From positions 26,446-90,445 of the IMG/VR virus record IMGVR_UViG_3300035422_000096: a stretch of DNA of 64,000 nucleotides; one strand, 5' to 3'. Positions 46,389-46,463 of this stretch are shown piece after piece. A program made the position numbers and the translations under genes. Under the pieces are notes generated by a model. It did no database searches. It was not told where the DNA came from and worked only from the letters and a program-made list of their open reading frames with translations. The stretch is from a virus. Its lineage: Duplodnaviria; Caudoviricetes. The first letter of the stretch is position 1; the number at the start of each line of letters is the position of its first letter.

Positions 46389-46463
46389 CTTGTTATAATG
46401 CAGCCTGGAAGCCTGATCAACTTTTAGACAGTCCCAAGCCTGTAAAATGCAGAGGGTAACAAG
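46389..46463 (+). ncRNA. Twister ribozyme (P1 type)
   Basis: P1 CTTGTTA/TAACAAG; TAA cleavage loop; P2 TGCA/TGCA; P3 CTGGAAG/CTTTTAG; P4 ACAG-TCCCAAGC-CTGT; 3' GAGGG. Confidence 0.9.

Follow-up and report, generated by a model that had tools for sequence, protein, structure and literature searches.

Positions 46389-46463 of the window (the whole 64,000-nt stretch of DNA analysed here) very probably hold a genuine type-P1 twister ribozyme. The element lies in a non-coding leader, ahead of early genes, in a large phage of the mouse gut. Judging from its sequence and from the surroundings of its relatives, we give a probability of about 0.6 to the reading that it serves as a constitutive RNA-processing or insulating element at the boundary of a transcription unit. 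The contact between its P1 stem and the Shine-Dalgarno (SD) sequence of the next gene looks like a by-product of the joining of two gene modules, rather than a conserved translation switch. The window is part of a 90,445-base IMG/VR virus record with an estimated completeness of 58%, and near-identical DNA is present in mouse-gut metagenomes from at least eight studies.

Anatomy of the twister

The Rfam twister-P1 model (RF03160) matches positions 46392-46460 (+) over its full length (model positions 1-68 of 68) with 57.7 bits (E = 2.5e-12 in a local search and 2.3e-10 for the whole 64-kb window). This falls under the curated gathering score of 67.2, and hence the default Rfam scan misses the element: at gathering thresholds only four tRNAs are reported, and the twister is seen when E-value thresholds are used. 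It is present in a single copy, with no second twister in the 90-kb record. ARAGORN detected no tRNA and no tmRNA in 45600-46800, and a phage GenBank collection contained no DNA match to 45000-48000. The parts of the element are as follows.

46389-46463, + strand: type-P1 twister, complete module including the 7-bp P1 (RF03160 and bounded conservation)
46389-46395, + strand: 5' strand of P1, CUUGUUA, whose outermost C46389 pairs with G46463 (sequence)
46396-46397, + strand: predicted scissile bond U46396/A46397 (alignment to the Rfam consensus ccuuUAAcgCc, and family rule)
46399-46402, + strand: 5' strand of P2, UGCA (sequence, Rfam alignment)
46403-46404, + strand: GC of L2, 5' half of pseudoknot T2 (Rfam alignment; T2 as defined in PMC5408937)
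46405-46427, + strand: optional stem-loop P3, 7 bp with two G-U pairs and a 9-nt loop (Rfam alignment)
46428-46443, + strand: P4, ACA (46428-46430) with UGU (46441-46443) (sequence)
46431-46440, + strand: L4, GUCCCAAGCC, an exact match to the family consensus
46448-46451, + strand: 3' strand of P2, UGCA (sequence, Rfam alignment)
46452-46456, + strand: 3' strand of L1, GAGGG, in which GGG (46454-46456) is the T1 partner (sequence, Rfam alignment)
46457-46463, + strand: 3' strand of P1, UAACAAG, ending in the AAG with which AAGGAGG begins (sequence)
46461-46467, + strand: SD sequence AAGGAGG of the ORF at 46478, with a 10-nt spacer to the ATG (sequence)

Sequence and Rfam alignment bear out the sequence-only reading in that all twister elements are there: P1, P2, P3, P4, the pseudoknot complements, the conserved loop nucleotides and the U/A step. 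The lengths of P1, P2 and P4 are 7, 4 and 3 bp (the Rfam model counts 4 bp in P1), and P3 is formed by 46405-46411 and 46421-46427. Within L4, CCC (46433-46435) is one half of T1 and GC (46438-46439) one half of T2, and both pseudoknots of the twister fold (as defined in PMC5408937) have complementary halves, CCC/GGG for T1 and 46438-46439 with 46403-46404 for T2. Twisters are recognised by some ten nucleotides conserved above 97% in L1 and L4 and by a scissile N-A step beside P1; here UAA, GUCCCAAGCC and GAGGG are the same as the consensus. The element thus follows the RF03160 class (Roth et al. 2014) in its order of parts (P1, U/AA, P2, GC, optional P3, P4, P2', GAGGG, P1'), and resembles type-P1 twisters in its L4, its predicted cut site and its setting near phage genes. 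Unlike typical RF03160 members, it is AU-rich, has G-U pairs in P3, scores below the curated cut-off, and belongs to a tight 74-nt lineage of large gut phages that behaves as a cassette with many flanks.

The cut proposed earlier, between U46396 and A46397, fits the scissile step of the family, in which a less conserved U and a conserved A adjoin P1 (PMC5408937), and is predicted to leave 2',3'-cyclic phosphate and 5'-OH ends. From the intact sequence, we regard self-cleavage of the 46389-46463 RNA as highly likely; about 94% of predicted natural twisters were cleaved in the high-throughput assay CHiTA, with many imperfections tolerated (PMC11662667). In the assembled contigs of four metatranscriptome runs, where RNA ends are not visible, those of the identical strain (X15 and X16) have no contig over 46104-46883.

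Covariation was assessed among phage twisters. IMG/VR was scanned by pattern for twisters sharing this P2, and 45 distinct sequences from the 65 loci obtained were aligned. Their stems are paired in 84.6% of cells, versus 68.8% in shuffles and at most 45.3% in slid controls (32-45%), and the covariation score (0.382, compared to 0.105 in shuffles) was reached by 0 of 500 shuffles. Double changes are numerous in the inner three pairs of P1, in P3 and in P4, with covariation at six of the seven P3 pairs and two of the three P4 pairs. The T1 and T2 bases are invariant in this set, and so give no covariation support for the pseudoknots. Nearest-neighbour folding of 46385-46485, pseudoknots excluded, does not favour the twister fold (z 0.24), and the same holds for longer contexts; since pseudoknot-free folding fails to produce the twister, it is uninformative on the accessibility of the SD, and duplex energies alone are used below.

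Flanks of the twister lineage

The same twister lineage was found in four IMG/VR loci (L003, L021, L035, L051), in ten metagenome loci (L079-L088), in L067 and in L073/74, with 89-97% identity to the window twister. Differences in P3 and P4 preserve pairing, and the G-U pairs of the window P3 are G-C and A-U in relatives. A five-way alignment shows that homology runs from TTGTTA to TAACAAG, between unrelated flanks. By BLAST, the shared block is 46390-46463 in every relative, its ends are sharp (46389/46390 and 46463), and 46389 and 46463 are the exact points where contigs of relatives from the RNA runs break off or are joined. TTGTTA/TAACAA of P1 is invariant across the lineage, and about 9 of 15 contexts also have the outer pair.

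We counted some 15 distinct flank contexts. Downstream, nine have a common leader (AAATTAATAGAGAAATAG...CATAGACAATCAAAGAAAGG) with an SD about 43 nt past P1, two (L021 and L082) have the strong promoter-like site TTGAAA-16-TGnTATAAT, two have other sequences, and only two, the window and L067, have the GAGG...ATG of a 35-aa ORF (ORF-35). The promoter-like site, at ~2166-2200 in L021, begins 2-4 nt past the 3' strand of P1 in both L021 and L082. Upstream, six contexts (L035, L051, L079, L080, L085, L088) carry a 9-bp terminator-like hairpin, GGCAGATGG...CCGTCTGCC, followed by TTGCTTGTTAT, and the U-rich tail of this hairpin is the 5' strand of the twister P1, so that termination and cleavage would yield nearly the same 3' end. 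The common leader can also be located in the window:

46606-46630, + strand: conserved leader block CATAGACAATCAAAGAAAGG.., which lies ~25 nt after the twister in most relatives (alignment, BLAST)

In a relative's contig from the RNA runs, 46463 is joined to 46606 with 24 other letters in between. L086 has the same upstream sequence as the window (AAGGGTAAGCGGTGCCG...) and the common leader downstream. This comparison suggests that the window bears a 142-nt insertion (46464-46605) after TAACAAG, the alternative being a deletion in L086. The 142-nt insertion, which carries ORF-35, is single-copy in the 90-kb record.

Two variants of the element itself were seen: L021 carries a second copy at 795-868 (89% identical), and the twisters of L067 and L083/L084 have GUCUCAAGCC in place of GUCCCAAGCC, which turns one C-G pair of T1 into U-G, and still score ~60 bits.

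Other twisters, GC-rich and also from gut phages (L010, L019, L031, L043, L053; L045, L011, L013, L033), lie between co-directional genes, with the upstream stop codon 2-35 nt before P1 and an SD 0-15 nt after it. In some cases two to three successive genes each have one in front; as an example, L045 contains three twisters, one ahead of each of three successive genes. Automatic SD and start calls around 51 twisters were noisy (GAGGG of the ribozyme is mistaken for an SD), and twister-gene distances were therefore read by eye and are approximate.

The 35-aa gene and the Shine-Dalgarno overlap

Two features follow the twister in the window:

46478-46585, + strand: 35-aa ORF, of a conserved small-protein family, MKRVSFxEYQILKxIY..VSASDNEALIFIRK (HMMER homologues)
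46541-46575, + strand: terminator-like hairpin in the 3' part of ORF-35, with an 11-bp stem, a 7-nt loop and UUUUUAU (terminator scan)

An exhaustive HMMER library search with the 35-aa ORF gave 20 hits at E ≤ 1e-3 (39-91% identity). Short proteins make up 18 of them, at 50-91% identity and mostly matching end to end, and the other two (P0006 and P0013) are ~1,460-1,480 aa long and match part of the query only. The homologues show synonymous changes in Arg, Ser and Ala codons; a tblastn search of the phage GenBank collection gave no match. By this conservation the ORF is a real, conserved small gene, and one that mostly occurs without an adjacent twister. Eight further contexts of ORF-35 were scanned with Rfam. 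Among the contexts fetched, a twister abuts the gene in L067 only; L073/74 have it 220 nt before the ORF and L070/71 740-900 nt before it, beyond other genes, and in L069, L072, L075, L076 and L077/78 Rfam found no twister before the ORF. No other class of ribozyme was found at E ≤ 0.1 before the twister-less copies (Rfam, 12 loci), nor did a sensitive Rfam scan of L077 560-800 detect any ribozyme at E ≤ 10. In L068, positions ~1440-1486 upstream of the ORF-35 homologue read TAATGCAGAGTGTAACAAGGAGG, with SD and ORF intact. This looks like a twister scar, in which a deletion between the two AATGCAG direct repeats that the palindromic P2 forms would have removed the core.

The homology of the ORF-35 cassette of L070 to the window begins at ~46458. 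Twister and cassette thus share AAG, and in the simplest reading the junction was formed at this short common sequence. ORF-35 is followed by a different co-directional gene each time (ArdA in L069, DUF7659 in L070), and occurs twice on one 97-kb contig (L075 and L076, with ~80% identity across 638 nt). The family could represent a mobile cassette with a leader or regulatory function.

The hairpin within ORF-35 has the sequence of a predicted intrinsic terminator: its G+C-containing stem-loop (46541-46569) is stable (-13.3 kcal/mol, z -4.4), directly followed by a U tract, and conserved. It is kept in 9 of 9 homologous loci, with 98% of cells paired; its covariation is not significant alone, with one double compensatory change (L070). 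The location of this hairpin makes one small gene, not the gene array downstream, the immediate partner of the twister. The array genes each have their own ribosome-binding site (RBS).

The reported overlap between the 3' strand of P1 and AAGGAGG is real, but limited to AAG (46461-46463): P1 pairs three of the seven SD nucleotides and one of the five bases of the GGAGG core. Pairing of the SD with the anti-SD amounts to -11.4 kcal/mol for the full site and -5.7 kcal/mol for the part outside P1. As a bimolecular duplex P1 reaches only -5.5 kcal/mol, and the 5' fragment should consequently depart after cleavage. The arrangement is found in two of ~15 lineage contexts, and in L067 the outer pair is absent (its C-G is replaced by G/G), hence no core base is masked there. 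Having the SD at or in the 3' strand of P1 likens the window to the engineered twister P1-SD platform (Felletti et al. 2016, PMC5052635) and to hammerhead SD-masking aptazymes. However, a designed anti-SD covers the SD completely in the engineered constructs, whereas the window pairs AAG only, and in an arrangement that is not conserved among relatives. Lacking both substantial masking and conservation, the P1/SD contact of the window was not counted as a switch of this type.

It had been proposed that cleavage both creates a 5'-OH end and frees the RBS, thereby coupling self-cleavage to translation of the array. The 5'-OH end is expected by homology; the coupling, in contrast, is not supported by the relatives, the energies or the hairpin, although cleavage may modestly help translation of ORF 46478. 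A full version of the proposal would have the first SD bases held in uncut P1, and the standby site blocked by the compact ribozyme, until cleavage switches on ORF 46478 and the later genes. We consider it unlikely. In its favour, AAG is paired within the 7-bp P1, cleavage would release UAACAAG given the weak bimolecular duplex, and the full SD binds more strongly than its unmasked part. The junction of the window, GGGTAACAAGGAGG, is found again in L067, and in a second, GC-rich lineage (L010, L019, L031) the P1 3' strand AGGAAGG overlaps AAGGAG by 4 nt. When the SD was built into P1 of an engineered twister, expression was 5-fold higher with the active ribozyme (PMC5052635), yet a twister that did not mask the SD in an E. 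coli 5' UTR left expression and mRNA level unchanged, and a residual ribozyme body directly before the SD lowered expression (PMC5052635). The single core base paired in the window (none in L067), the rarity of the junction within the lineage, the many ORF-35 homologues that have their own SD and no adjacent ribozyme, and L068, which apparently lost the ribozyme core and kept SD and ORF, all speak against a switch. So does an upstream hairpin (AAGCG/CGCUU) that competes for the same outer P1 bases, and so do the terminator-like hairpin between ORF-35 and the array and the RBSs of the array genes. Moreover, cleavage is rapid and does not require P1, which leaves no stable OFF state (PMC5408937); twisters cleave while being transcribed, making a long-lived masked state unlikely. 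We deem very improbable a more elaborate scheme, in which twister, SD, ORF-35 and hairpin would form one natural control cassette heading an early, possibly anti-defence, array. Self-cleavage would expose the standby site and the SD and so permit translation of ORF-35, and ribosomes moving through the hairpin at 46541-46575 would block termination, making transcription of the early array dependent on cleavage and on translation or ribosome availability. The order of twister, SD, short ORF, in-ORF hairpin and later genes (in the window and L067), the preservation of the hairpin in all nine homologous loci, and the pairing of ORF-35 with ever different co-directional genes, twice on the 97-kb contig, are compatible with it. 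However, conservation of the peptide sequence itself points to a functional protein rather than a simple leader; most copies of ORF-35 have no adjacent twister, covariation of the hairpin is not significant, and transcription-translation coupling is weak in many Firmicutes. Were this scheme true, nature would have an equivalent of the engineered ribozyme-SD switches, linked here to translational antitermination.

A different account denies the element any activity as RNA: the twister would be decayed or inactive, or kept for a role at the DNA level, such as a promoter element or, for the conserved 74-nt block, a recombination linker between early-gene cassettes. The score below the gathering cut-off could be read this way, and so could the bounded homology between unrelated flanks (as in recombination linkers) and the L068 scar, which suggests recombination between two AATGCAG repeats. 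TGnTATAAT can also be read at 46391-46399, where TGTTATAAT is a perfect extended -10 element. However, no -35 element accompanies it (2 of 6 matches) and the site is absent from the list of the promoter scan. A transcript starting from that -10 would lack the 5' strands of P1 and P2, though their 3' partners are conserved. The likeness of TGTTATAAT to a -10 is probably a coincidence of an AU-rich P1 beside UAA. Every conserved catalytic and pseudoknot nucleotide is intact, and the P3 and P4 changes that keep pairing in relatives are those expected of a selected RNA and not of a DNA site. We therefore hold this account to be improbable.

A proposed role at transcription-unit boundaries

The reading that we prefer, constitutive processing or insulation, is the most likely job for an independent 74-75-nt module sitting at RNA-unit boundaries: in relatives, it is right after a terminator (six contexts), or right before a promoter (two) or the common leader (nine). 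The terminator-twister and twister-promoter pairings, the intercistronic twisters of gut phages, and the processing of polycistronic RNAs proposed as a role for bacterial and phage twisters (PMC6765202) all argue for a boundary role. Upstream of the twister, the window has one further feature of interest:

45698-45726, + strand: promoter-like site TTGACA-17-TATATT with TG (consensus scan, 11 of 12 matches)

The terminator scan found no terminator-like site on the + strand from 45698-45726 to the twister, and the promoter-like site is likely to be the start of the twister-carrying transcript. This transcript would fold into the double-pseudoknot twister, and self-cleavage at U46396/A46397 would leave a 2',3'-cyclic phosphate on the upstream RNA, which comprises a 72-aa ORF and 375 nt of leader. 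The downstream RNA would start with a 5'-OH enclosed by the compact fold of the ribozyme, and the SD of ORF-35 would follow this fold directly; for twister 3' fragments, the 5' end is reported to lie inside the fold (PMC8782182). With the weak 7-bp P1 falling apart after the cut, read-through RNA would be severed and the downstream message would gain a defined, structured 5' end. The 3-nt SD overlap is most likely a result of the ORF-35 cassette being fused to the 3' end of the twister at the common AAG.

Several points count against such a boundary role. The score of the element is 57.7 bits versus a cut-off of 67.2, P3 has two G-U pairs and the folding z is 0.24. RNase J1 of Firmicutes can be drawn to a 5'-OH end, as happens with glmS. 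The lack of effect of a twister in an E. coli 5' UTR (PMC5052635) weakens the case for a stabilising or insulating benefit.

Known leader ribozymes provide partial parallels. RiboJ is an insulator ribozyme, whose self-cleavage in the leader removes the upstream RNA context. As in RiboJ insulators and in the mRNA processing proposed for bacterial hammerhead and twister ribozymes (PMC6765202), cleavage in the window would leave a structured 5'-OH end before the RBS; unlike RiboJ, the window element is natural, and its copies in relatives are paired with terminators or promoters at unit boundaries. It shares with glmS (PMC6765202) a 5'-UTR location and a downstream mRNA that would begin with a 5'-OH, but glmS depends on a metabolite cofactor and makes its mRNA less stable, whereas the window element has another fold and no evident ligand domain.

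Twisters near phage genes are common and have been known since the description of the class, with no biological role yet established for them in bacteria or phages (PMC6765202). One twister lineage that occurs as a bounded cassette at RNA-unit boundaries makes processing or insulation a testable hypothesis. The lineage also offers a natural series in which the same ribozyme touches an SD (window, L067) or does not (L086, L035, L021), suited to testing a natural P1-SD overlap. If the overlap proved to have no effect, the window would hold an ordinary example of a known ribozyme class.

Some other features of the window deserve mention. A hammerhead candidate at 39558-39616 gave no Rfam hit at E ≤ 0.5 (window) or E ≤ 10 (local), and can be read as type I (AUCCC-CUGAAGA-stem II-GAAA-CUACCC/GGGUAG-UC-GGGAU). 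Upstream of the twister, an exact 15-nt direct repeat, ATATAAGGGTAAGCG, stands at 46303-46317 and 46362-46376, 59 nt apart; it occurs nowhere else in the 90-kb record, and L086 has the repeat-proximal sequence too. Further upstream, 46018-46075 resembles a tRNA-like minihelix, with an acceptor-like GCCCAG/TTGGGC and a T-arm CGGGA-TTCGATT-TCCCG, in which ARAGORN calls no tRNA. This block is a bounded conserved module of its own (98% identical in L003, 84% in L070 and 97% in L077/78), lying in these loci upstream of a twister or of ORF-35. In RNA run X19, contigs of relatives cover 45773-46240 at a depth above that of the surroundings.
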